Shown: piece after piece, positions 5,921 through 23,971 of the stretch
Position numbering within the stretch: the first letter of the stretch is position 1
How the letters are laid out: every line of letters begins with the position of its first letter
Origin: Tubulanus polymorphus
Taxonomy: Eukaryota > Animalia > Nemertea
DNA length: 64,000 nucleotides
Direction: 5' to 3'
Assembly (NCBI RefSeq): GCF_964204645.1
Contig: NC_134027.1
Location: forward strand, 12,618,485 to 12,682,484
Program-made: the position numbers and the translations under genes
Notes under the pieces: model-generated
Databases searched by the model: none
What the model was told of the DNA's origin: nothing
Seen by the model: the letters and a program-made list of their open reading frames with translations, nothing else

Positions 5921-6380
5921 AGAAGTAATTAGATGTATGTCGTTTCATACCAGAGGTCGAAAGATCGAGCTCATAAAAAATAAAAAATAAATTCTCGCAT
6001 GCTCTAATTTACTTTTTATTTTTTACTCGCTCAACCTTTCAACCTCTGACATGAAACGACATATATCTTATTACTCTAATATTTATATATGTGATATTCA
6101 TATATATATATATATATGAATATTCTATATATATTATACAATGAAATCAATTTTATTAAAAAAATTATATAATAAATGGAGAGTAAACAAGTACACGGTG
6201 AGAGCAACAAATCATTCTTAAATAGGATTAAAGTTACTACAAATGCTAAATCAGTAGATTATAAATTTAAAACGCGATCTGAGTTTACAATTCATAAGAA
6301 ATATTTAATTACTTATATTGAAACAACTACTAATAAATATGGAGATAAATCAGTAATTCATCTAGAATATGAAGGATTGA
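5921..6380 (+). repeat. Polinton left terminal inverted repeat, including a ~155-bp hairpin (5921-6077) and the start of the TIR ORF
   Basis: Reverse complement matches 22244-22644 (e.g. CTCGCATGCTC, CAACCTTTCAACCTCTGA, ATGGAGAGTAAACAAGTACAC). Confidence 0.85.
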
Positions 6381-6385
6381 AAGGG
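6176..6385 (+). pseudogene. Polinton TIR-encoded small protein (MESKQVH...), truncated by an internal deletion
   Basis: Same protein at 22254-22448 (minus) and 22657-22939 (plus; that copy retains the C-terminus ...FRTYLPDRF...FIYKG...IYFE*). Confidence 0.7.
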
Positions 6386-6389
6386 GAAC

Positions 6390-7150
6390 GGTTGGTTATA
6401 CAATTTTATTAAAGAAAGTATTTAAAATGGGAAATATTAATGTTGATAGATTTGATATAAATGATATTTTGAAATAAACATTAGCAGTTACTTTATCTAA
6501 TGTAACAATTGGTTATTTGGAAAAACAAAAAAATATTCCTCCTTTAAAAGCATAGTTCATGTTAAATAAATGGCATCTGCAATTATAACTATTATAGGAT
6601 CGGCAATTGTTAACGCATTAGAATTTACTGGTGGTGGATATTTATAGAAGGCACAGAAGATTATGAAATGCACGACATGGGAGATAATGATGTCAATATT
6701 AATAATGATGATTATTTGACTGCTGATACAAATATTGATAATGAACCAAATTCTAAAGTATCATTGAAAGATAGAATAAAATTATTATTTAAGTTAGATG
6801 GTATCACAATTCTTTCAATTCTAACAGCTGTAACTATGATATTTACAACGATAGGTTTAGCTATATCAAATTCATTAAAATCTACACCTACCCCTAATAA
6901 ACCAGTTAAACCTCGAAGCAATAATTCTATAAAAGATAAAGTTAAGGATGGTTAAGAAAAATCAGCAAAATATCTATGGGAACTATCTAAAAAATCTGCT
7001 GCAGCTCTACCTGGAGTTATAGCATCAATTATTAGCTTTGTTTCAAAGTCTGTTGGAAATCTCATTAGTTTTGCTGCTGAACATATAATATTATTTTTAA
7101 CTACAGCGGTAAGTCCAATTATTTTTGGACTAGTGAATATGATAAAATAA
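6390..7150 (+). pseudogene. Cluster of small Polinton/adintovirus genes with hydrophobic/amphipathic helices (fragments joined by deletions)
   Basis: VGYTILLKKVFKM...YLEKQKNIPP; MASAIITIIGSAIVNALEFTGGGYL (ATG 6570); SLKDRIKLLFKLDGITILSILTAV...AAALPGVIASIISFVSKSVGNLISFAAEHIILF. These resemble, from recall, the small genes upstream of the capsid gene in animal Polintons. Confidence 0.65.
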
Positions 7151-7178
7151 AGATAAGTAATTTTTTTCTCTTAAATAA

Positions 7179-8419
7179 ATGAGTGGGAGTTATATAAATC
7201 CATCTAAGAATTCTAGAATATCTAATGCAATTAAAGCAGAAAGATCTCATCATATAATTACTCATAATCCTTCTAATATTGATCCAAATGAAACTTAATA
7301 TGTTAGAATTCCGAGATTAAATCAAAATACTTTTTATCTTCCAAATACTATTTATTTATCAGCTGTTATAGAAGTAACTGGCAATAATAATAATCATGTT
7401 GTAGATAATGTTGGAAGATATTTGATTAAAAAATTAACTATAAAGATTGGACCAGATACAGTTTTTTCATTAGATGATTATAATTTATTTATGCATTATA
7501 AAGATTTATGGCTAACTAAAGAAAATAGAAATAATTTGATTTTCCAAGGCATTCAATCAGAAAATCAAAATAAATTAAGATCAGAAGCTAATAACGTAGT
7601 AGTAACTAATGACGTAGACAATTTAATAAAAAAGGTTTATGGTATTAAATATAAAATTCCATAAGACTTTGAATTGATAAATAATAATGCGCCTTTATAT
7701 AAATATGCAATACAAGAAGATATTATATTCGAAATAACATTTGCTCCTGTTAATGAAATTGTGCTATCTAGCGTTGTTAAAGATATGGGTTATAAATTAT
7801 CAAATATATGTTTAGAATATGACACAGTAACTGATGAAAATATCGCTAGCGCAATTCAAACTCAATACAATCAAGGTTATTCCTTATGATATGATTATAT
7901 AGATAAATTTAAAACTGTAACTATTAACGCAGCTGATGAAATGATTAATGAAAATATTAACTTTCCTAGAAGATCTATTAAAGGAATATTAATTTTCTTT
8001 AACACAATACATTCTAATGGTGCAATAAAGGTTGATAAGTATTATAACCCCGAAATATCAAAAGTAGAAATAGCTATTGAAGGTATAGCAAATGAAATAT
8101 TTTGTCAAGGAATGAGAATGATAGATCAATGGGTAGAAATAAAAAAAACATTTTATGACTGAAAAAATAAACTATCTGAAGATTGTGATATTAATCAAAT
8201 ATATTATTATACTGGTGATAAATTTGCATTATGATTAGATTTAGAACAACCGAAGATAACTTATTACATGGCTCTGGGAAGCGACTGCAGAACACTAAAG
8301 ATGGTATTCAATTATTCATGAGAAAGAAGAAAGGAGGTTTAAATTATAAAATGCATATGTATATTATATCTGACGCGCAATTAAACATTACAAATTCTCA
8401 ATTACATAGTGTTATGTAA
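7179..8419 (+). pseudogene. Polinton major capsid protein (double jelly-roll, hexon-like)
   Basis: ITHNPSNID, DNVGRYLIKKL, YKDLW, YKLSNICLEYDTV, PRRSIKGILIFF, YYNPEISKVEIAIEG, TEDNLLHGSGKRLQNTKDGIQL, ISDAQLNI are typical of animal Polinton MCPs. Several in-frame stops and frameshifts. Confidence 0.9.
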
Positions 8420-8457
8420 TGATAAAATCATCTTTAATAAAAATCTTTTTATAATAA

Positions 8458-9110
8458 ATGGAGAGAGGAATATAAGAAATAGAAACTTCAAGTGAAACAA
8501 TATCGGATATATATTATATAATACCTTATGAATATAGTAAGTATTTTGGAGAATTCTATAATCAATTCAAATACAGAATAAGTAAAATTGAAAGAATATT
8601 GAAACTAGAATAGAAGATACTAATAAGATTGAAATAAAATAGAGGATGTAACAGCATCTACTTCTAATTATAATATAGAACAATATAATGTTAAACCAAA
8701 AGATGTTAAACCAAAAGTTGTTAAACCAAAAGCAAAAGATAACATTAGATGTGTATTTTGTGAAGAAGATTTTAATGATAATGATTATTTATTGCATATT
8801 AAAACAGAAAGACATATTAAACAAAAGGTGAAAACATATGCTAAGATACATAAAATAAAGAAGATAAAAATTATTGTGCCTTCTGTAATGAATGTATATC
8901 AAAAGCAAATTGGGTAAAGCATTATAAATTAACAACGAAAGGTGGTAAAGATACAATCCATGCAATACATGTATATAAATCTTGGTGTGAAAAATGTAAA
9001 GATTATATAAAATATTATAAACAATTGAATCATAAAAACACAATTACACATGTAGGTATAGATAATGTATTAGAAAATCCATTAATTATAAATCCAAAAT
9101 TTAATAAAAT
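8458..9110 (+). pseudogene. Polinton multi-zinc-finger protein (C2H2/matrin-like)
   Basis: CVFCEEDFNDNDYLLHIKTERH; YCAFCNECISKANWVKH; WCEKC...H; disrupted by stops and frameshifts. Confidence 0.6.
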
Positions 9111-9223
9111 GAATATAACAGATTACCGGTGGTATAGAAAAATATTTATAGATTATTTTCGGGTGATGATATAGTTACCATATTAAAATTTTAGATAACT
9201 TTAAACCAAATATAACTTATGCA

Positions 9224-9487
9224 ATGGAATTTTTTGAACTTAAAGATGATGATTTTAGAGAATTTTCAAATAAACATCCATCTAAAAATGAAATCAAAAA
9301 TTATATTCCAAAAATATTTTCAAGAGCAGCATTTATTAATTATAAACTCAGGCATAGTGGAATTTATTCAGTAGCGATGAAAAGTAATGTAGATAAAGAA
9401 TATATCGATCTTGTCAAAAAATTGAAAATGAAAAAGAATGATTGTTCTATAGAAATATTATATAAATTAAATGGTATGATAAGATAG
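9224..9487 (+). CDS. Polinton hypothetical protein (probably the 3' part of a decayed gene)
   Basis: 87-aa ORF with the same AT-rich codon style as its neighbours; no motif recognised. Confidence 0.35.
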   Translation: MEFFELKDDDFREFSNKHPSKNEIKNYIPKIFSRAAFINYKLRHSGIYSVAMKSNVDKEYIDLVKKLKMKKNDCSIEILYKLNGMIR

Positions 9488-9919
9488 ATTGAATAGAATA
9501 AATAAAATGAATGGTTGAATTGGATGAGTTTTTTATTTACTTGATTTAGGTTATTTTATCAATTCTATACTATATTTGAATATTATTTAAATATATTATA
9601 ATATTATATTTATATTTTATTAGAAAAATATTTTAACATAGTATAAAATAATCTAAAATCATACTCATACCATTTGTAATGAAAAAAAAAAACAAATTAT
9701 GAAGTAAATATAAAACTAATCCTATTCAACTATTCATTAAATCCATTTTTATTCAATCTATTCGTCTTATCATACCATTTAAATTGTGAATTTGTAATCA
9801 AATGGAAATTTAAGCCTCAGCAATAATTTTGAACCTTTATTATTTTTTAATTGTTCTATAGATTCACTATGTAGTTCAGTAGGTATAATTTGATTTCCTT
9901 CTAAAGCCTGTTGCATAGA

Positions 9920-10803
9920 TTTTTGACGCTTTATAAAATGTTACCATTATGAACCTAAACAATGTTAACCATTCAGCGTCATTTTACAAACGACAACCGT
10001 AAATCGATGTGAAAAACATCACAGGTCTATGTGTACACATACAAGCTATTTGGTAAACATTCCACCAGCAACCCTGACATGGGGTTGCTGGTGGAATGAC
10101 GAAGCTATCTACGATCTGTGTAGGGTCGGCGTGAATTTCATCGGCGGCTACAAGCGGTCAATATAAAAATGTGTAAATATATAATTTCAATATTCAATTT
10201 CAATATTTTTTTTAGAAAATATATCCGATATTAGGGGTATGCGGGTTTCATGAGCAATTTATAATAGCATAGCTGCCATATACGGCTCCGCGTCCTCGGA
10301 TGGCATGTGTACGAGGTGACAATTCAATTCAATTCTTTATTGATCCATAAAATTCCCAAATTCAATAAAGTTACAAATTTTAAAATAAGAAAATACAACA
10401 TACAAAACACATGCGTATTTCATACAGAATAACATAAACAAGTTATTTTAAATGGCATTAAGGATATCGAGTGACAGCCAAACAGGCTAGGCCACACGAT
10501 CAGTCATCAGACGAGCTCTTTCCTCAACCATGGAGGCAATGAAGTTGCAGACCAGCTTAGAGGCAAAAGTGAATGAAGTCGGTTGCAAGGTATAAATTAT
10601 TGACAATTTTCAGTAAGAAAATTAAACCACTACTCCAGTCGAAGACCTAGGCTCGTATCACCTACCCAATAGCCAAATCTCATAATTCCCCAAATTTCTT
10701 AAAACCTCAATTTCAAATTTGCAATTCCACATTAGCTTATCCCAAAAATTCTACATTTTTTTCACAGGCGTCAAATAATTTATTAGAATACATTTCATTG
10801 TTT
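9920..10803 (+). mobile_element. HINE family E, copy 2 (internally deleted), inserted in the ATPase gene
   Basis: TTTTTGACGC...CAGGCGTCAAATAAT...TTGTTT; inverted homologue of 1218-2354; inserted in a T-run. Confidence 0.75.
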
Positions 10804-11008
10804 ATCTTTGTTATGAAATTATATTAAAAATCTTATATTCTCTCTTAAGTCGAATTATATTTTTGATTCAAAACCCAAGTTGTAATTCCAAAATGTCTAC
10901 CAGAGAACGCTAGATAACATAACTCACTTTCTCTAACATTTGAATCATGTAAATTGGCACAATCTTAAATCGTAAATTGGCACAATATTATGGATAATGT
11001 ATTTGTTC

Positions 11009-11011
<3 letters not shown>

Positions 11012-11092
<81 letters not shown>
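11012..11092. repeat. (TA)n microsatellite
   Basis: About 40 TA units. Confidence 0.95.
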
Positions 11093-11096
<4 letters not shown>

Positions 11097-11540
11097 ATTT
11101 TAATACAATTATCTAAATTATTCAGTACAGATTTAGGATCTAATGTAATACATTTTTTATTTTTTTAAACTATATCGCTATTATATATTTTATTCATTTC
11201 ATAAGTAGGACAGAATAATATTATATTATCAAAATGATTCTTATAAACAGTTTCTAATAAATCTAATATGAAATGTGTCTAACCGCAATTTGTTACTCCA
11301 GTTACTAACATATTATGTGGTTCAAATATAAATAAATCTTTATTATTCATTTATTTTTTTTATTTTATTTGATAAGATCCATTCATTAAATTTGTCATCA
11401 TACCCTTTATATTTCACCAAAGAATATTTCTTACCACGCAACGTTTTTGTTTTCAATACCTTTTCAATTTCATATTCTATATCAACTGGATTTGGTACAA
11501 GTGATAATTAGGTTATTTTTATGAACAAGAATTATTCTTG

Positions 11541-14500
11541 TGTAGATGGATGTAGATGTATTATACTCGTGTAGATGGCGTTGGGGGAGCGCTGAAGTGC
11601 TGCTCCTCAGCTCTTCCCAAAGTTACAATTTCAAGGCCTCTCCAGGGCCCTTGACTCGGATGGATGTGTTTAACTGTGTTGTGAATACTCCAAGACTGTG
11701 CTGGCTGAAAGACTTTACTGTTCTCATCACTGGAGAGTGTTTAAACTGATTTGGACTTTTTGGATTTTCAACATTCAGATAATTTTACTACCACCATATT
11801 GGATTACATAGCCTTGTGATAATGGCCAAGTTACGCTCGATCACGCGATTACTTGACTATAGTCGACTTAATATATCAAACCAACTGGAACATAAACTTC
11901 GTTCATTTAATATCTACAGACGCATGTCAACGAGGCGGAAAGTCAGAGGTTTAGGCTCTAAACCTTTTCATGGGACATTACCTGGACATTCAGTGGATAG
12001 TAAACAAACTTTGAGTGGATTCAAACTGGGTGTCTTCAATGCTCAATCTGTCAGGAATAAACATGATCAGATCCGCCTTGCTGTGACTGAATATGACATT
12101 GATCTTTTGTGTCTGACTGAAACCTGGTTATCTACATCTGACAAGGATGCCTTTTTTGCCAGATCACTTACACCCCCGGATATAACTTCGTGAATTTCCC
12201 ATATTCTGGAAATACTGGATATGGCGGTGTGGGTCTCCTTCTCAAACAAGGACTCACCATTCAGAGAAAGGAACTCTGCCTACCAGGCAACTCATTCCAA
12301 GCCTGTAGTATCAAGCTGTCAGCTGGATCTAGAGTTCTCCACATTGTCAATTTCTATCGACCACCACCCTCGCTTAAGAACAAATTTACTGTTACTGGAT
12401 TTATCGACGAAGTATCACCACTTATGATTGAACTCAGTTCTAGCCCAGGAGAACTTGTACTTGTTGGAGATCTGAACTTTCACTTTGACGTACCAAATTC
12501 ACCTGATACCATTAAGTTTATGGAGTTGATCCAGTCCCTTGATCTCAAGCAACATGTAGATTTCCCTCACACAGGTCGGGTCATACATTGGATGCTGTCA
12601 TCACAGCCCAGACCAGTAACGTCGTTCAGGCTTTGTCTCAGTGTGATATGTTATCTGATCATCTTTTGTTTGTCTGCGACATTGCATTTCCAAGAGCTCC
12701 ACCAACCAGAAAGGTTATTTTGACCAGGAATATGCGCGCCATAAATTCCTTATCTCTAGGTATGGAGATTGCTTCATTAGCACCACCTACTGAAGGCATA
12801 GGGTTGTCTGAAGTGTGCCACTATTATCACAAAGCCCTTGAAAACATACTGGACAGCCATGCCCCTCTCAAGAAGAAGGTCATCAATGTTAAGCCTTCTT
12901 ATCCATGGTTCAACGATGAACTGCGTCATGCTCGTTCCACTAAAAGGGCAGCCGAACGGAGGTGGAAGGATACTCGACTTACGGTACATTTTCAAATGTT
13001 TCATAGCGTGCGCAACCACTACAACATACTTATTGCCAAGGCTAAGCGTGACTACCTGAACAATAGAATAACTGATGCTGGTTCAGACACAAAAGCCATG
13101 CAACGCGTGTTCAATGAAATTCGTGTAAAGGACCGTACTTGTAGACTGCCAACGCATACTGACGATAAGGCCAAACTAACTGATGAATTTTCCGACTTCT
13201 TCATTGGCAAAGTCAAAGACATTCAGAATCGTTTTGATCAAATGCGCCCAGCTAGAGATGATCCACTATCATCCTGCCATCTTAATACACTTGATGAAGC
13301 TTCTGAAAGTGAAGTACGCAAAATCATAGTTTCTTCACCATCAAAGTCATGTGGTTTGGACATACTGCCTACGTGGCTAATTAAATATCCGGATGTCATA
13401 CCTTCAATTGTAACAGTGTTTACCTCTATAATCAACCACTCACTGTCTGATGGCTCTGTTCCAAAGTCATTAAAACTGGCTCTGATTACACCCATTCTCA
13501 AACAGCCAACATTGGATGCTGATGTCTTTAAAAACTATCGTCCAGTAAGCAATCTTACGTTTTTGTCTAAAGTTATTGAGCGAGTGGTGGCTGCTAGATT
13601 ATCTAGATACATGGAGGTGAACAACTTGCACGACCCCCTACAGTCAGCCTATAAGCGTAATCATAGCACCGAAACTGCAATACTCAGGGTTCAGAATGAT
13701 CTCAGGTGAATGGTGGACAGTCATGGCTGTGCTCTACTTGTGCTCCTCGACTTAAGTGCTGCTTTCGACACTGTGGATCATGACATTCTCCTCACTCGCA
13801 TGGAGAGTCGTCTTGGAATATCTGGTAGTGCACTTAGTTGGTTTCGATCCTATTTGAGTGAGCGCACACAAGCGGTGGTTATTGATGGTTGTCGATCAAA
13901 CCCAAAGGTGCTGGACTGTGGTGTACCCCAGGGCTTGGTCCTTGGCCCCCTTCTGTTCCTTGTCTATGCATTGCCGCTTATGCATCTGTTTACTAGTGAT
14001 ATTGTAAAGCGACATGGCTTTGCAGATGACAAACAAACGTATGTTGCCTTGTCTTGCAAATTTGATGCGGATCTATCCCAGCAGCTTAAAGAACTCCAGG
14101 ACACATTGAACAGGGTTCATTCATGGCTCTTTGAAAATAAACTCACGTGTAATCCGGATAAGTTCGAGGCCCTTCTCGTTGGAACTAAGCAGAGTTTGTT
14201 AATTCACATACCACCTCTAAATGTCGGCGGCGCCTTTATCCCAGTGCAGAAAGTACCGGTGAGAAACTTAGGTGTGATGTTTGATTCGTCCCTCTCCATG
14301 GACAGCCAAGTCAAAAGTGTGGCTCGTTCCGCCTCGTTTCATCTTAGGATTATTGGTTCTGCTCGTCGCTTCCTCACGCAGAACTCAGCAAAAATGTTAA
14401 CGCAGTCTTTAGTTCTGTCGCGATTAGACTATTGCAATAGCTGCTTGTATGATATCAGTGATTATCTTCTTCATAGACTCCAACTTGTGCAAAATAGAGC

Positions 14501-14952
14501 TGCTAGGATTATTGCACTCACTAAGTCACATGATCACATCTCTCCGATTCTCCGTTCACTTCATTAGCTACCAGTACGCAAACGGATCTTATTTAAAGTT
14601 GCTTTGCTGGTTTTTAAGTGCCTCCATAACTTGGCACCCTCTTACCTCTCCAGCCTGTTAACAGTTTACAGACCAGTCCGAACACTTCGTTCCGGGTCGC
14701 AGAATCTTTTGTTAGTCAGATCATGTCGTCTTAAGTCATTCGGCGGACACGCATTTGAGACATTTGCACCTACAGTGTGGAACTCCCTTCCGCAACCTCT
14801 CCGTGATATTGACTCTCTGCCAGCATTCAAAGCACAGCTCAAGACATTTCTGTTCAAGTCACCATCTTTGTCTGTAGAGCGCCTTTGATAATAGCACTGC
14901 TATTTACAAGGCGCTATAGAAATTTACAATCCTATCCTATCCTACAATCCTA
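11541..14952 (+). mobile_element. Near full-length single-ORF L2-clade (CR1 group) LINE
   Basis: Short 5' region starting GTAGATGG. 3' end GAGCGCCTTTG...AAGGCGCTATAGAAAT followed by an (ATCCT)n-like tail, typical of L2 3' ends. Possible short TSD TCTTG(T). Confidence 0.88.
11816..14888 (+). pseudogene. LINE ORF2: APE endonuclease + reverse transcriptase
   Basis: EN: FNAQSVRNK, LCLTETWL, FYRPP, VGDLNFH, SDH. RT: NYRPVSNLTFLSKVIE, LLDLSAAFDTVDH, GVPQG.VLGPLLF, FADD. Two frameshifts (~12190, ~12575) and two stops (13707, 14565). Confidence 0.92.
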
Positions 14953-15865
14953 TCTTGTTCATAATATTTCTTCATCATTTAGATCTAATAATTTGTATAC
15001 AAATGGCTTAGTTAATATTATCTTTATAATCTTAAATATTTCTTCGGTAAAATTAGGAGTATAACCTTTATAGAATGTATTTCGATTTACATATTCTAAC
15101 TTGTTGACCAATTTTAAACTTAGGTTCTCCGAAATCATGTGCAACAAACGCACCATCTAAATTGTTTCAAACAACTTCTGAATTATCTTCTTTTCTAGCT
15201 TGTATAGGTTTCATACCAATACTTGAATGTTTAAATTATTATAACCTTGCATCATCATATTATAACCTAAATCATCTGATACATCAATATATCTATATGT
15301 TTCATTAGCAGTAAAATATTTCCACATTCTAGTTTTCAATGCTTCATTAAATCTTTCTATAATAGATGCTTTTTCACTGAGTGTGTTGAAAAATACTCTA
15401 CATTGTTATCAGATAATAATCTTTTTAAATGTTTATTATAAAATTCTTTACCTTCATCAAATTGTATCTTACCTGGAATAGCTTCTTGAAATATTAATTT
15501 GAACGCATTAGTAACTTTTATACCTGTTTTATTTTGGTATACTCTATGCGTATCTACTGAATATATCTATAACATTTAATATCCAGAAATATCCTTTCTT
15601 ATATTGTTCTAAGTTCTTCATATCAATTAAATAAGCTTGCCACTTTTGGTCAATATATGACACCATCTTGTTAAAAAGTTTTTATCCATGTTTCTATGTA
15701 TTTGATATGTAGGCTGTTCTTGTAACCATGATTTTCATTCACTATATTTATTTTTATCTTTATCAAATTTAATTTTATCCCATAATTCTTCCACACTAGA
15801 ATATGATACTTCACTTTCAGGATTATGATATAAATCTATTAAATATTGTTCTTTTTTCATTATAT

Positions 15866-16813
15866 TCTAATCCATTGATAATAATTTAGATTTATTTTCA
15901 ATATTTTATTTCTTTTTTTATTTCTTATTTTATATCTTTATTTGATTTCTTTTCTGGTATAATAGGTTTATCATCATTATCATCATTATTAAATTTATAT
16001 TTATATTAAATTTATATTACACCAGAAAATAAAATAACTGTGATTAATCCAATTGAAATATGCAAGTAATTAATCAGAAGAATTAGATTATTATTAGATC
16101 ATTATTTGAATTAATATCAGATAATTTCAGTGATTCATTTATATCAGTTAATTTCGTTCCTTTGCTCTTTTTAACTGGGTAGATCTTTTTCCAAACTCCT
16201 TTGCCCACGCAATTTGTTTCTCAGATCTAGGCTTTTTTAAATATCATCACTCATTTATTTTAGTTAATTTTTGTTCTGTTTCATTATTATCTGATTTATC
16301 ATTATCTTTATATTCTATAGGTCAAATATTAGAAAATGTTATACTCCAGTAGAAATTAATGTCATTATTCCATCTAATTGGAATGATGTATACCCAACCA
16401 ATTTCTGTAATTCTGTCGTAACTATCTAATTATTTTTTAAATCACTATATAATTTATTTTCATCATTGATCGGCATTACCCGAATACATTACTTAGAGTA
16501 ACATTTTACTATTCCATCACTAATGGAATCATTTATTCTAGCTAATCTAGCTTCTTCATATATTTTAAAGTATTTGCTTACTTTATCTGGTTTCATAGCA
16601 TCTAGCTCTTGATATGTTATAATTTTACTTAAGAATTCTTTGCATTTACCACTAGCAATTAATAACTCAAGATGGTGCTAACATGTTGAATAGTACTCGT
16701 AATCAATACTATTATTAACTTGAGCCTAATTAGTTACAACTGTATCTCTATTATCTGTAATGCCCAATTCATTTAATGTCTTTTGTAACATTATCCTTTA
16801 ATTCCTTAGACAT
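15866..16813 (-). pseudogene. Two small conserved Polinton genes (ATG at 16813 and 16254)
   Basis: ...LELLIASGKCKEFLSKIITYQELDAM...YFKIYEEARL... and MSDDI...KPRSEKQIAWAKEFG followed by a hydrophobic stretch. Resemblance to Polinton accessory genes is from recall. Confidence 0.55.
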
Positions 16814-17018
16814 TTATTATGAGAAAAAAAGAAAAAAATAAATATTAAAATATTTTAGTTAAAGTTAAAGTATTCTAGTATTCTATATATGTTCATAATA
16901 CTATTTGTAATATTCATAGTATGTGGTTGTTCTACCTCGATTTATTGTGCAAATTTTTTCATCAAAATTCAATAACATGTTAAAATCCTGTTCATAATCT
17001 GATTTTCTTTATCTTCTT

Positions 17019-17366
17019 CTCTTTTGAACTTCAGATATTCATCTGAATTTCAACCATAAGCGACTGTTTGAATTCCGTCGTTTAATATATATCTCTTATC
17101 ATCGAAAGGGTTCAAACTAACTTTTTCTATCGCTTCAATAAACATCTCATGATCCACAGATCTTAAACATCTCATCTTATTTTTTCTAACGTCTCTTTTG
17201 AACTTCAGATATTCATCTGAATTTCAACCATAAGCGACTGTTTGAATTTCTTCGTTTAATATATATCTCTTATCATCGAAAGGGTTCAAACTAACATTTT
17301 CTATCGCTTCAATAAACATCTCATGATCCACAGATCTTAAACATCTCATTTTATTTTTTCTAACTT
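17019..17366. repeat. 174-bp tandem duplication of the PolB C-terminus
   Basis: Unit starting CTCTTTTGAACTTCAGATATTC at 17019 and 17193; the copies differ at a few positions. Confidence 0.9.
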
Positions 17367-18148
17367 CTTCATTAAATATGCTATTGATATAATCTTGGAA
17401 ATGAATATTTTTTTCTACTACACTTTTGGTAATTCCTTTCAATTTTTTAGCTTCATTTTCCTTAGTTTAATATGAATACATTTTAGATCTAATACCTATG
17501 AACTCTATCATTTCTTCACCACCTAATTCATCTTTAAATTTACCTGGAACTTTTTTATCATCATTACTAAATAATTGATTTTTAGGATAGTTACTGAAAT
17601 GAAATAAAAATGATGTTTTAATATTTTCAAATCATTTGTTAGATTATTAGTTTTTATCTTTAATATGTAACTCTCAGTATCAAAATATAAGATTTCTATA
17701 TGCTTTTCACCAAAATGTGGTTGCAAAACATTATAACAAAATTCATACATCAATAATTTTGATATTTCTAAAACTGATGCTCCAACATAATAGGTTTATT
17801 GAACTTCATTGATGTTCTTCTCATTTTAACTGTAGCTAAACTTTCATCAGATATTATGTTACCTATGAACGGATATGATTGTAAATACCTAATTCTTTTT
17901 CCATTGCTCACCAACTCAATATAATTTCTATTTCTAATATTCTCACAAGTCTTTCCATAGAATGCATTATTCATTAAGTTGAAGAAATCTTTCTCAAAAT
18001 CAGTTTTAGCTTTAGTTCTCTGTTTGGTTTTAAAATTAATATATTTTTCTAACCATTTAGATTGACTGAATGAAATATATCTATGTACTTTTTTAATATG
18101 ATTCCTTGTTTCAAATAGAATTTTAACATTCTATAATGTACTACATAA

Positions 18149-19412
18149 TTAGGGTTTCTGCTGCCTCGGCAGAAACCCTATTGGATTCCTGCTGATTATC
18201 ATTTTAACATATTCTCCACTGGTTTCGTCACAAAAAAATTCATCTTCTATTAGATTTGACTACTAACAACTTTGAAACGAAATGTTAAACTCTGATGATA
18301 ATATAACAGTCTCTTGCTGCGCGTAGTTTCTATGGATGTACTGTGCTTCCTATTTTAAACTTGAAGTTACTTAAAGATAACACCGGTGGAAATAGCAATC
18401 ATCAATCATGGCGCGCACACTGGCGCGAATCTGAAAGTTTGTGACGTCATTTCATAAATAAATAAAGAAGGGAGGCTCCGAGAATATCCAAATCACAGGT
18501 CACTGTGAATAACTGGGGTTCGACCATTCACAAGTTAAAAATGTACTACTTCCTTGTTTGTGAAGTAAGTTCATTCATACTGTTATTAAAAGCATTTTAA
18601 CCTTTTAAACATTTTAAACATTCTATAATAGTATAGTTTTGTTCGTGGATATCAATACTTCGAAACATCAACAGCGGTTTATTCATTTATTGTACCGGTA
18701 CGCGTTTTCTTAATTAAATTGAATTGGTCCGGTCCAAAAGGCGGGTCATACTAGTTAGCGTCAGAAAATGTCAGCGTCGGTGATACCTTGTTATCGTCGA
18801 TATTAAACGGTCTAAAGTCAGTTTATACATCACATACATAACAAATTGGATGTCCCTTGTACATGTACATCACATCGTGACGCAGCGGTGATGTGAATGT
18901 CATAGAAGAACAAAGTCAGTTAAAAATACCTACCCACTGCACCGATAAAGAATGATTGCAAGCCAGAGGTCAGTGACAGACAGTCAGTAATGGGGAGTGA
19001 TGGTACCGTTCGTGATTATGTTTTTATAATGGTTATTGGACGTCAATTTCATATGTGAATTGTAGTCCCCATCTGATCGCTTGACTTGTCAGACTGACTT
19101 GTCACTCCTCTACTAATAGTAACACTATAAGGCCTTCCCTCCTGCATAGTTTACCCTATAGGCCAAATTTGTGTTTTCTCATCTTTTTTCGGAACCAGTA
19201 ATAACCGAATATGCGCTTAAACTGTCACTAGCGAATGGTAAAAACACCGTAGCTTCGTTCTTCTCGATGTTATTTCCCCCAAAACCTGGTACATTAGTAC
19301 TTCGCGCGTAGTAGCACATGCGCGTAGTAGCACATGTGGGTCAACATATCCATGTTGTGAGTTGACCCCTAGGTGGCACTCTTTCAAAAAACGGAATGTG
19401 ACGAACTGATTT
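18149..19412 (+). mobile_element. HINE family D insertion (3'-truncated) within PolB
   Basis: 5' hairpin TAGGGTTTCTGC...GCAGAAACCCTA; shares an internal segment (TTTGTGACGTCATTT...GGGAGGCTCCGAGAAT.TCCAAATCAC) with 38455-38965. PolB residues between GYFFE and NYVVHY are missing. Confidence 0.6.
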
Positions 19413-22243
19413 CGAAAAAGTACCCAGTATCAGCATCATCCGCTATATCTAGAGTTCTTTTCTTACAATCAAATTTATCAACATTTTCATGTTGTAAAAC
19501 TTCACTTATTTCAAATACTCCATAAGTTTGTGGTTCCATCATTACCCAACCATATAGATTATTTGCGTCTATATATAATAATTCATATACAGGATTATCA
19601 TTTACATTGAAATATCTATCACCTAATACACCTGAAACACCTCCTCTTATAGAATTTTCAAATAATACTAATTGATCTATATTTGTTAATAAGTCCCTTT
19701 TTAAATCTGTAGATTTTAAAAGACATCCCCAAGTTAAACCTGGACTAGAATAACAGTGGCAAGGATCGATATTAAAATATCTTAGATTTACATCTCTAAA
19801 CCTTTCGAATACATCAGTTAATAATAATATATCTGATCTTAAATATAAATCTACTAATTCACCATGATCTTTCAGTCCAAAATGATTCCAAATATTCAAT
19901 GTTCTATTATAAACTTCATCTTTAACACATTCGGATCTTAATTTATCATAAAATTGTTCTTTTAAAAATTCAGTTATATTAAAATCATTATGATCTTTAT
20001 AAAAACTATATGGTATAGCACCTATATATCTCATTAATTGAAAATCATCATTATTTGGATAGTGTTGCTTTAATATTTTTAGTTCATCATCAACCAATGA
20101 TTTTGATAAATTATCTAATAAACTATTTAGAAATCTATATGAGTCTATAAATCTTAAACATCCAAATTGGAAACATATATGATTTTCAGATGTTTTAGCT
20201 AACATTTTGAATTTATAAGTTGGTATTTTGTCTACATCTTTTGATCTATTAGAATTCAATATTTCTATTTCATTATTGATTTCTTCTATTTTATGACATA
20301 GTTGTTTAATGAATTAATGAGCACCATACTCTGATAAATTATGAAATATTACTGGAACAAAATTGATTTTTTTTAGCGTGCAAGTTTCAATTCTCATGTG
20401 CTGCACCTCTAAACTTTCCATTCAAATGATCATGATCTCTAACTTTTTCATCTTTGAAATTAAATAGTTTTTCACAATAAAAACATTTATCAGCAAACTC
20501 AAATTCCTCTGTATCTTGTTCTGTCATTATAATTTCTTTATTTGCATCTTATAATTCATTAAATTTCATTTCATATTGAATTAATAAGTCACTAAAATGA
20601 TTAATAACATTTTCATTTCCATAATAATAATATTCACTTTTAATTAATTCTGGATAGTCGGATTTCACAAATAAACCAAAGGCTGCAGCTGATTGTTGAA
20701 TATTTTTAATAGTATTTGTTTTTGGTGATCCTGGATAATCAATTACACCAGAATTTAATTTCGTTTTCTTATAATATATTTCTGTTCTATCTTGGTCAGT
20801 TAGTTCTTTATACTAAATAACAAATGGTACTTTATTTTTGTAATCATATTTTTTGAATTCTAATGTATTATCTTTTCTGTTGATAGAATTAATTTACAAT
20901 AATCATGATTATCACATAGTTGTTTATGATCTAATAATGCATTTTCAGTTCTAACTTTATGTAAACATTTTCTACATAGATATATTTTATGAGCATTATC
21001 AGAATCTGATTTAAAAAATAAATCAATTTTTTTATCCACATATAATGATTATCATAATATGATATATCTATAACATCAATTGAATCATAATCTTTTGATA
21101 GGTATAGAGGTTCTAATGTGTAATGTCTTATATTATCTCCTTTTGTATTTGGTAATTTAATCAAATCAAATACATTTATTTTTATATTATTATCTCTTTC
21201 TATTTTTGGAATATTTTCAATTCTAATAGGGTACCTATCTATCTAATAATTATTTTCAAATGGTAAATAATTTGATAATCTAGATCTATGTGTAATATCT
21301 TCTGTTGGATGTAAACAATTAATCATTGACCATACAAAACATTTATTATCTTCATTTTGTACATTTATAACAGCATTAGTTTTAAATGGTAATTTGATAT
21401 AACTTGATGTATTTATATCATTATCGTTATAATATGATGAATTATTTTCATCAATTGGTTTTTATTTAGTCAATTTATTATATTTTGTATTGTACACATG
21501 TAACGTCATAAATATTATTTCATCGAATTTCAAACCCGATCCTTCAAAATATTTCTCTTCTATTTTACTTTTTATTTCATTATAACATCTATCTAATCTA
21601 TCATATATATGTTGTTTTGAAATAGTATGTTGTGAATGAGAATTTATATTATATATTGGTTTATCTTCGGATTTTGTAAATTTAACTTTAGCAGATATAC
21701 TAATTTTAGGATATTCTACGTCTGTGATTATTTTTATAATATTTTTCATATTTTCTAAATGTTTCTTATTTTCTTCTAATGTTTTGCCTTTATAAAATTT
21801 AAATTCAATAGCAGCTGGTCCAATATCACTTTTAAATGCTTCGGTTATTTCAATATTTTTTTATCATCTAATGAATAAATATAAATTCTAACATCTTCAA
21901 TGTATGGTCTTTTATTGTTTAATTTATTCTTTATTCTTTTAATCATGCTTTTTGTTTCTTATTATCTTTATCAAAATAATCTTCACCTAACATATCATTA
22001 TTGATATTTCTAATATGACTTTTAGATTTTAAATGTTGTTCATAATATCTTTTGTTACTGAATGATTGATTACATGTAACACATTTATATAGTTCTTTTT
22101 CATTCTTAAATTCTTCTAATTTAGTTTCTAATATATCATCTTTATATTCTAATTTCAATCTATTCTCTAAGTGTGTTTTAGTTTTATTATTTCTTGCTTT
22201 TTGAGATTTATCTATGTTAATTTTACATGTTGGACAGTAGTAA

Positions 22244-22644
22244 TCAATCCTTCTTATTCTAAATGAATTATTAATTTATTACCATATCTATTAGTAATTG
22301 TTTCAGTATTAGTAATTAAATATTTCTTATGAATTGTTAATTCTGTTAACTTCTTAAATTTATAATCCACTGATTTAGCATTTGTAGTAACTTTAATTCT
22401 ATCTAAGAATGATTTGTTGTTCTCACTGTGTACTTGTTTACTCTCCATTTATCATATATAAATTCTTTTATCAAAATTGATTTCATTATATGATATTTAT
22501 AAAATATTCATATATATAAATATCACATATATAAATATCAGAGTAATTAGACGTCGTTTCATATCAGAGGTTGAAAGGTTGAATGAGTAAAAAATAAAAA
22601 AAAATTCGAGCATGCGAGAATTTATTTCTTATTTTTTATGAGCT
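22244..22644 (-). repeat. Polinton right terminal inverted repeat (outer ~47 bp missing)
   Basis: Inverted match to 5968-6380, including ORF 22254-22448. Confidence 0.85.
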
Positions 22645-22656
22645 AAATACATGTAA

Positions 22657-22939
22657 GTAGATTATAAATTTTAGAAGTTAACAGAATTAACAATTCATAA
22701 GAAATATTTAATTAGGGCCTACTAATATTGAAACAATTGCTAATAGATATGGTAATAAATTGATAATTCATTTAGAATATGAAGGATTGAAAGGAAACAA
22801 ATATAAATTCAGAACATATCTACCAGATAGATTTCATAGATTATCTAGTAAAGATATTGAAGAATTATGTTCTGGTGATTTCTATTTCATATATAAAGGT
22901 AAGAATGAAAAAGGGCGCCATGAAATATATTTCGAATAG
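22657..22939 (+). pseudogene. Third, inverted copy of the Polinton TIR ORF (C-terminal two-thirds)
   Basis: VDYKF*KLTELTIHKKYLI..TNIETIANRYGNKLIIHLEYEGLKGNKYKFRTYLPDRFHRLSSKDIEELCSGDFYFIYKGKNEKGRHEIYFE*. Confidence 0.8.
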
Positions 22940-23971
22940 TAAAAAATTTAGACTTTAGCCGTTGGAATATAGATTTCTTTGAAAAAGAGAAGGAAAAATC
23001 GGGACCATTAATATTCAACCGTTGTTTTTGATTCAGTCAAAGAGGCTATGATTCATTGGAAGCTGTGATTTGGGAATAAGTGATAATTTTTGAAGTTGGG
23101 CTGTTCCTCAGAAATTGATTTCTGATGCAAATTTCTCTATTCATCTGACTCATCAACAAGATCTTTTGACAGTTTTGACCATTTTAAAGTTCACCAGACG
23201 CGAGGTTTTTGGTGGCGGGGAGGTTTTCCATTTGATAACCACCATTAAAGTTAAATCAAAGTATTAAATCACTCCCAACGCACGTATTTTATGAGTTGTA
23301 TAATCAACACTGTGTAATTTATCATTTAATCGTCTAACTTTGTCGAAGTTGAAAAATAGGCCCTCAGATGCGCCGAAAAAGCACAAAACCCTCACCGGGC
23401 TTCGCGCGTGCTCGAACTGAATGCGCTCGTTTGAATGTGCGCACCGTCGGCGCTCCAGATTGTCGCACCATTGACTAATTTTAGGTGGCTACGTATCGGA
23501 GTTGTAGGTAATGTAAAAACGTTAATCTGTTAATCCTATGTCTATAGTAGTTATTTTATATAGACAGGATTAACAGATAATCGTTTTTACATTACTTAAG
23601 ACCCTGTGATCCCGCACCGTTTTTTTTATAGATTTTTAACGTATAAATGCTGGATGTATCTTAGCTTTAAAAAACAAAGAATGGATGCTTCCAAATATTT
23701 TCAGCAAAAATAGAAATGCTGCCTACCTGGCAGCGCGGGAGTACTGCAACTCCTTAAGTGAATCGTTTTGGAGCGGAACACACGCGCGTATTACATCCCA
23801 CACGCAAGCCCGCTAGCTAGAATCAACGTTTCGTACGAGCAGTTAGTTCTCTAGTCGACACCGCCGACGATCAATGTATGTGACGATCAATGTATGTACA
23901 ACGTACAGACAAGACACGACCCGGACTACTTGCTGCCTGCCAGCATTGCATTCAGAATATTAAACATCATC

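Follow-up and report, generated by a model that had tools for sequence, protein, structure and literature searches.

Poxvirus-like TAAATG motifs at the gene starts of a Polinton lineage in the nemertean Tubulanus polymorphus

A stretch of 64,000 nucleotides from the genome of Tubulanus polymorphus (contig NC_134027.1, positions 12,618,485 to 12,682,484; hereafter the window, numbered from its first base) carries a broken copy of a Polinton. Nearly all genes of this element begin with what appears to be a two-part signal of poxvirus late or intermediate type, and it is therefore likely that the element borrows the machinery of a helper virus. With a probability of about 0.6, this Polinton lineage would, in the style of a virophage, have its genes transcribed through these pox-type promoters by a co-infecting helper, a poxvirus-like virus that supplies the RNA polymerase.

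TAAATG at gene starts

The window copy is disrupted by stops, deletions and insertions, and because every gene is broken, the starts were anchored by N-terminal homology to open reading frames (ORFs) of other copies in the genome, from which the gene identities were also taken. TAAATG is found at eight of nine starts anchored in this way, compared with 23 among the 477 ATGs of the element's native parts that are not starts (Fisher p = 9e-10). When the repeat-mates 6176 and 22448 are counted once, the figure is 7/8 (p = 5e-9). The start at 22448 is that of a small repeat-borne ORF, joined to the polymerase gene in this rearranged copy. A preliminary description of this DNA had held that nearly every gene starts with a longer motif, AATAAATG, and the positions it gave are exact: AATAAATG lies at +6171, +6565, +7174, +8453, -11355, -16259 and -16818 (seven of the nine starts), GATAAATG at -22453, and TATAATG at the integrase start (-15864).

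Copies of the element number in the hundreds in the T. polymorphus genome and fall into two subfamilies, which have a structural block in common and differ in polymerase, integrase and terminal genes. The sample of other copies comprised 25 copies or part-copies in 40 genomic stretches, and is biased, as ten were picked for long open polymerase frames and 15 for a match to the poxvirus late factor VLTF3. Gene families were recognised by N-terminal peptide, and each was scored by the majority of its distinct start contexts. TAAATG is the majority start in 20 of the 22 families, against 780 of 12,799 other, AT-matched ATGs (background 6.1%); three families have one common repeat-derived promoter, and merging them gives 18/20. 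AATAAATG is present in 11/22 families, and at 19/45 starts in 13 relatives deduplicated by removal of three near-duplicate loci. The earlier generalisation is thus correct for TAAATG and fails for AATAAATG as the core of the motif, while the predicted enrichment over an AT-matched background is borne out. Within coding DNA, TAAATG shows no depletion. Pure chance or AT composition is refuted by the enrichment over AT-matched backgrounds, and a TATA-box reading was rejected on established knowledge, since the start site would fall inside the gene.

Lineage restriction and upstream tracts

A metagenome scan for relatives of the capsid gave at least 80 loci, here divided into 16 near and 64 far, with all ORFs of at least 120 aa counted; the counts in this comparison are among the matches listed. 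From 53 loci matching near the N-terminus, 45 capsid starts were obtained, and TAAATG occurs at 13 of the 14 with 51–75% identity compared with 4 of the 31 with 30–42%. Across all ORFs, it is present at 54/63 in the near and 11/211 in the far relatives, and the more distant capsid relatives lack TAAATG promoters and have mostly Kozak-like starts. Contrary to the Kozak rule, position -3 is T in 55/63 near ORFs; it is a purine in 133/211 far ORFs and in all three host histone starts scored. A quick tree of the capsids, with 41 rows, rooted at the midpoint only and leaving out five short rows (two of them TAAATG), places all 16 TAAATG rows among 18 on one side; the remaining 23 rows include none. 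The motif persists at 36–44% GC (7/9 ORFs in loci L046–L048). By these counts the TAAATG signal is specific to one lineage.

It is very improbable that the motif merely reflects an AT content of 75% and the selection of whichever ATG comes first after a stop. A slight excess is seen in the far relatives too (11/211 against an expected 1.3%); however, AT-matched backgrounds reach only 4–8%, capsid starts are fixed by homology, and a far relative at 26% GC (L059) starts with AAAATG.

Three distant capsid relatives (L063, L064 and L073, about 34% identity) also start with TAAATG, and two of them, L063 and L073, sit on long branches beside the main lineage. Relatives within the TAAATG lineage (L041:10343-10981 and L046:2898-3377) encode a deoxynucleoside kinase (PF01712, E about 1e-31). 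A capsid relative of 54% identity (P0045 cluster) is filed in several Bartonella assemblies on contigs of 0.5–1.6 kb, and is likely contaminating host or vector DNA.

Upstream of the motif, 19 of the 22 families show a T- or A-tract in fixed register. The capsid is among 12 families with a T-tract at -16 to -10 (mean T at least 5.3); in all but one of the 12, most copies have T at -13. Seven families, including the packaging ATPase, the zinc-finger ORF and one polymerase, have an A-tract at -19 to -13 (mean A at least 4.5), followed by T; in the remaining three the tract is mixed or neither. The strongest upstream position is T at -12 (0.85). Among the 13 deduplicated relatives, this T precedes 39/45 start TAAATGs and 25/78 non-start TAAATGs, and either tract precedes 37/45 and 19/78, respectively, the non-start controls being mostly coding DNA. 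The sequence (G/T)TAA is common at about -20 to -17 in both tract classes, and most stop-to-start gaps between genes of the element are 16–32 bases. The likeness to poxvirus promoters proposed earlier is supported, and extended by the fixed-register tracts, the T at -3, the confinement of the motif to a single lineage and the presence of a VLTF3-like gene in sister copies. TAAATG probably serves as the initiator in a post-replicative promoter of poxvirus type, with the upstream tract as the other of its two parts. Genome-wide, the T-tract promoter pattern has 3,916 matches compared with 11 for its reversed control.

The motif could instead be the AATAAA poly(A) signal or TAA stop of an upstream gene, overlapping the next start in a compact genome. 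AATAAATG is present at 7/9 window starts and in 11/22 families, one gene pair meets at an exact TAA-ATG junction with a gap of 0, and AATAAA lies 10–15 bases past some polymerase and capsid stops. Against this, half of the families lack AATAAA and yet keep TAAATG (TATAAATG at 18/45 starts in the deduplicated relatives), most stops are 16–32 bases away, internal AATAAA is not avoided, and motif and T-tract also precede repeat-proximal genes and the divergent VLTF3-like gene, where no gene lies upstream. The preliminary description had dismissed the poly(A) signal because the outermost repeat-borne ORF (start 6176) carries the motif with no gene upstream. This is so in the window copy, and the dismissal now has wider grounds in the families without AATAAA, the promoters without an upstream gene and the length of the gaps, leaving this explanation improbable.

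The VLTF3-like gene and transcription of the element

A genome search with PF04947, aimed at traces of a helper, returned 63 matches above the cut-off among 150 scored, and led to a zinc-finger gene of 430–440 aa inside the sister subfamily (14 loci listed). Its C-terminal domain matches PF04947 with E 1.8e-6 and 28.2 bits (cut-off 25). Four relatives of the protein were found among 1.8 billion proteins, one being a VLTF3 of 226 aa that carries an A2L zinc ribbon, and the N-terminus of another is matched at 96% on metagenomic contig L041; when the whole protein served as query in a homolog search, nothing was found. The predicted structure combines a zinc ribbon with a helical fold, and its top match in BFVD is cowpox VLTF-3 (E 3e-6), with the caveat that the alignment behind the model included a pox-like VLTF3. 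On this evidence the sister subfamily encodes a predicted VLTF3-like factor. VLTF3 has been reported before in some polintons (PMC11131425).

If a helper virus transcribes the element, initiation would occur inside the AAA of TAAAT and, as in vaccinia, slippage would add a 5′ poly(A) leader. With such a leader, the unfavourable T at -3 would give way to A, and genes could be packed at gaps of 16–32 bases. The T-tract class would correspond to late and the A-tract class to intermediate timing. The VLTF3-like protein may help to draw the helper polymerase to the promoters of the element, acting in trans for copies that lack it. TTTTTNT, the poxvirus early terminator, is rarer than expected in coding strands, with ratios of 0.40 for near and 0.77 for far ORFs among the matches listed. 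No poxvirus RNA polymerase subunit was recognisable in 44 ORFs of relatives or in 26 scanned ORFs of the element itself, and 42 clusters were inspected by eye.

A different explanation keeps the poxvirus ancestry of the promoters and dispenses with the helper: they would be read in the nucleus by the host RNA polymerase, by way of the element's own TFIIB-like VLTF3 protein, supplied in trans where absent. The element does integrate, as its 6-bp target duplications indicate, and has reached hundreds of copies. The zinc ribbon and helical fold of the VLTF3-like domain are accompanied by weak cyclin/TFIIB matches (Z 5–6.6, within background), mriyaviruses have VLTF2/3 in small genomes (bioRxiv 2026.06.19.733378), and host TATA-binding protein targets vaccinia post-replicative promoters, according to the title of a cited reference. 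However, the coding strands of the AT-rich members carry 4.6–4.9 AATAAA per kb, undepleted at 0.92–1.06 of the shuffled expectation, so that RNA polymerase II transcripts would likely be truncated. Far relatives among the matches listed have the same ratio at 0.4 per kb, and so density alone discriminates. Moreover, the T at -3 and the 16–32 base gaps fit slippage leaders better, and many copies have no VLTF3. Transcription by the host polymerase is accordingly considered unlikely, although it is the most credible of the explanations that do without a helper.

Several observations weigh against transcription by a helper. In the window subfamily, the polymerase begins with TAAAATG at all four starts scored in other copies, and the integrase start lacks the motif (0/7). 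The far relatives are mostly at about 50% GC, and the near–far comparison is hence not AT-matched. In the sister subfamily, T-tract promoters precede both the polymerase and the VLTF3-like gene, which makes the match between tract class and function imperfect. The VLTF3-like domain was missed by whole-protein Pfam scans in three of three cases, poxviral proteins make up three of the nine BFVD matches at E ≤ 0.001, the caveat on the cowpox match belongs here too, and the gene was not seen in the window copy or in the ORFs of ten copies of the same subfamily. The depletion of TTTTTNT is only suggestive because homopolymers are depleted in general (A6 0.60, T6 0.34). Helper traces sought in the host genome with PF04441 (an early factor of nucleocytoplasmic large DNA viruses, NCLDV) and PF04451 (capsid) gave no match, the controls being undetected as well, and the literature listings searched held no poxvirus of a comparable host. 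Finally, the TAAAN initiator also occurs in yeast virus-like elements, which would allow for a helper other than a true poxvirus: what the initiator marks is a type of polymerase, not the family Poxviridae.

The expression of animal Polintons is an open question, as is their status as autonomous viruses or as parasites of larger viruses, and a lineage-wide poxvirus-type promoter offers a sequence-based test of lifestyle. Helper transcription predicts an unknown poxvirus-like virus in an invertebrate, probably a non-arthropod, and if true would bring the integrated elements of animals within virophage biology, possibly including antiviral defence like that of mavirus. A genome search for arthropod cuticle genes gave no match, its control being undetected as well. 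The chances are about even for a broader proposal, in which a distinct and widespread lineage of animal Polintons would be endogenous virophages of poxvirus-like viruses, with a two-stage pox promoter programme and a late factor captured by some members; their hundreds of copies would record repeated germ-line infection by a poxvirus-type virus yet to be discovered, and Polintons could be sorted by helper from the promoter signature. No description of TAAATG promoters in animal Polintons was found in literature listings whose coverage leaves out most subscription papers, and the word 'promoter' is absent from the available parts of PMC8502044, bioRxiv 2026.06.19.733378 and bioRxiv 2024.03.23.586382.

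The element and its relation to known systems

Maverick/Polinton elements have terminal inverted repeats, AG..CT ends and 6-bp target duplications. The present element is a Polinton by its predicted gene content and its ends: an rve integrase with chromodomain (PF00665, E 7.9e-9, in another copy), an A32 packaging ATPase (PF04665, E 1.9e-12, in another copy), a protein-primed DNA polymerase (PF03175, E 3.1e-19, in a sister-subfamily copy), a double jelly-roll capsid, and AGT..ACT ends in 6 of 15 copies examined, all six flanked by a 6-bp target duplication. The capsid of a natural copy is predicted to fold as a double jelly roll (pLDDT 84) and matches NCLDV and virophage capsids, with mavirus and Sputnik ranked below those of NCLDV. 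PF03175 was not reported in a Pfam scan of the ORFs of one copy of the window's subfamily, and the broken genes of the window gave only the reverse transcriptase of a long interspersed nuclear element (LINE) and a weak chromodomain (2/21 frames). The adenovirus-type cysteine protease of group 1 Mavericks/Polintons (PF00770) had no match in the genome, where its control was also undetected, and none among 17 ORFs of other copies. Scans of viral_contigs found no relative, and PDB searches by sequence were uninformative.

First-look candidates across the genome number 1,153 for the capsid and 1,625 for the polymerase, and the listed copies concentrate mid-way along large contigs. The polymerase of a sister-subfamily copy (L038:5528-9964) has an intein-like stretch that includes a LAGLIDADG domain (PF14890, E 3e-8, just below the cut-off; PF14528, E 3e-6).

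Table 1. Features of the Polinton copy in the window.
Feature	Position	Strand	Remarks
Polinton copy, broken and rearranged	5924..22650	.	limits approximate; three later insertions (LINE and two others)
Left terminal region	5924..6175	+	AGTAAT at start; imperfect hairpin 5924-5993 / 6006-6075
A-tract and AATAAATG	6150..6178	+	start of small repeat-borne ORF (MESKQ family); no gene upstream in window copy
AATAAATG	6550..6572	+	start of MASAII-family ORF; upstream T-tract eroded here
T-tract and AATAAATG, putative late-type promoter of capsid gene	7155..7181	+	vaccinia late architecture (PMC11980589)
Double jelly-roll major capsid gene	7179..8420	+	interrupted by stops and a frameshift
A-tract and AATAAATG	8433..8460	+	start of zinc-finger ORF (MEGG family)
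A-tract and AATAAATG	11348..11375	-	start of A32-like packaging ATPase, with interrupted remnants as far as about 9790
Inserted LINE retrotransposon	11530..14960	+	RVT_1, E 3.4e-26; splits integrase gene
Integrase (rve and chromodomain) start, TATAATG	15858..15864	-	exception without TAAAT
A-tract and AATAAATG	16252..16275	-	start of MSDGV-family ORF
T-tract and AATAAATG	16811..16840	-	start of MSKKS-family ORF
Protein-primed DNA polymerase remnant	16937..22242	-	insertion at about 18152-19414
GATAAATG	22446..22475	-	repeat-mate of the 6176 start

The window copy (Table 1) is low in GC, and its colinear pieces are 74–89% identical to a copy of the same subfamily, while the polymerase remnant is 72–86% identical to other copies. 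The sequence at 5968-6380 recurs inverted at 22244-22644, and the segments 22244-22950 and 6145-6645 represent rearranged ends, with the small MESKQ-family gene in inverted pieces on both sides. The imperfect, 150-base hairpin at the left end (5924-6075) has AGTAAT and ATTACT at its borders, and may be a terminal structure or two back-to-back ends. A deletion fused the MASAII-family gene to the 3′ part of another gene, and several internal genes are deleted, including a probable penton gene (weak DUF5901 match in other copies). An interspersed repeat is present in two inverted copies (1258-2320 and 9952-10761), one within the ATPase gene, and a 174-base tandem duplication (17018-17365) is found near the 3′ end of the polymerase gene.

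Vaccinia late promoters consist of TAAAT(G) with a T at the tenth base upstream (PMC11980589) and a T-containing core 5–7 bases before TAAAT (PMC5294985), and the intermediate ones of TAAA with an AT-rich stretch 15–19 bases upstream and then a T (PMC11980589); late promoters of African swine fever virus use TATA instead (PMC7163114). The putative Polinton promoters resemble the vaccinia late type in the overlap of TAAATG with the start codon, the T-rich core 5–7 bases upstream and the T at the tenth base before TAAAT, and the intermediate type in having an A-rich stretch near -15 to -19 and then a T, with TAAA in some cases lacking the TG after it. They differ from those of vaccinia in lying on an integrated element of about 11–15 kb in which no RNA polymerase gene was seen, and in the (G/T)TAA common to both tract classes. 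The yeast virus-like elements pGKL1/2 have a similar TAAAN initiator, with poly(A) leaders made by slippage of a poxvirus-related polymerase; unlike this Polinton, they encode their own polymerase and have an upstream element resembling the poxvirus early promoter (PMC6211774).

Mavericks/Polintons (adintoviruses; PMC8502044, PMC11131425) likewise have a protein-primed polymerase, an rve-chromodomain integrase, an A32 ATPase, a double jelly-roll capsid and terminal repeats; the present element departs from them in that no adenain protease was detected and in its lineage-wide TAAATG promoters. The entomopoxvirus-associated polinton-like viruses, also found in animals and about 12 kb in size, have been proposed as hyperparasites of poxviruses (Barth et al. 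2024, PMC11296320). In contrast to the Polinton, they come from occlusion bodies, and an rve integrase is missing from all four, each of which has an adenovirus-type protease. Promoters are not analysed in the available part of that paper, where 'promot' appears a single time, in the title of a reference, and the rows viewed of its supplement show no likeness between their capsids and the window type.

Sputnik, mavirus and the polinton-like virus Gezel-14T are, like this element, small and capsid-encoding, with the promoter of a large virus at their gene starts (bioRxiv 2022.07.28.501842), and mavirus also has a protein-primed polymerase and an rve integrase (PMC11296320), and it integrates. 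Those three have protist hosts, mimivirus-type motifs and a known helper, whereas here the host is an animal, as its Wnt genes show, and the motif is of poxvirus type. TAAATG at the gene starts of this Polinton appears to be a real, lineage-wide regulatory signature, and would represent virophage-type promoter sharing in a new form.

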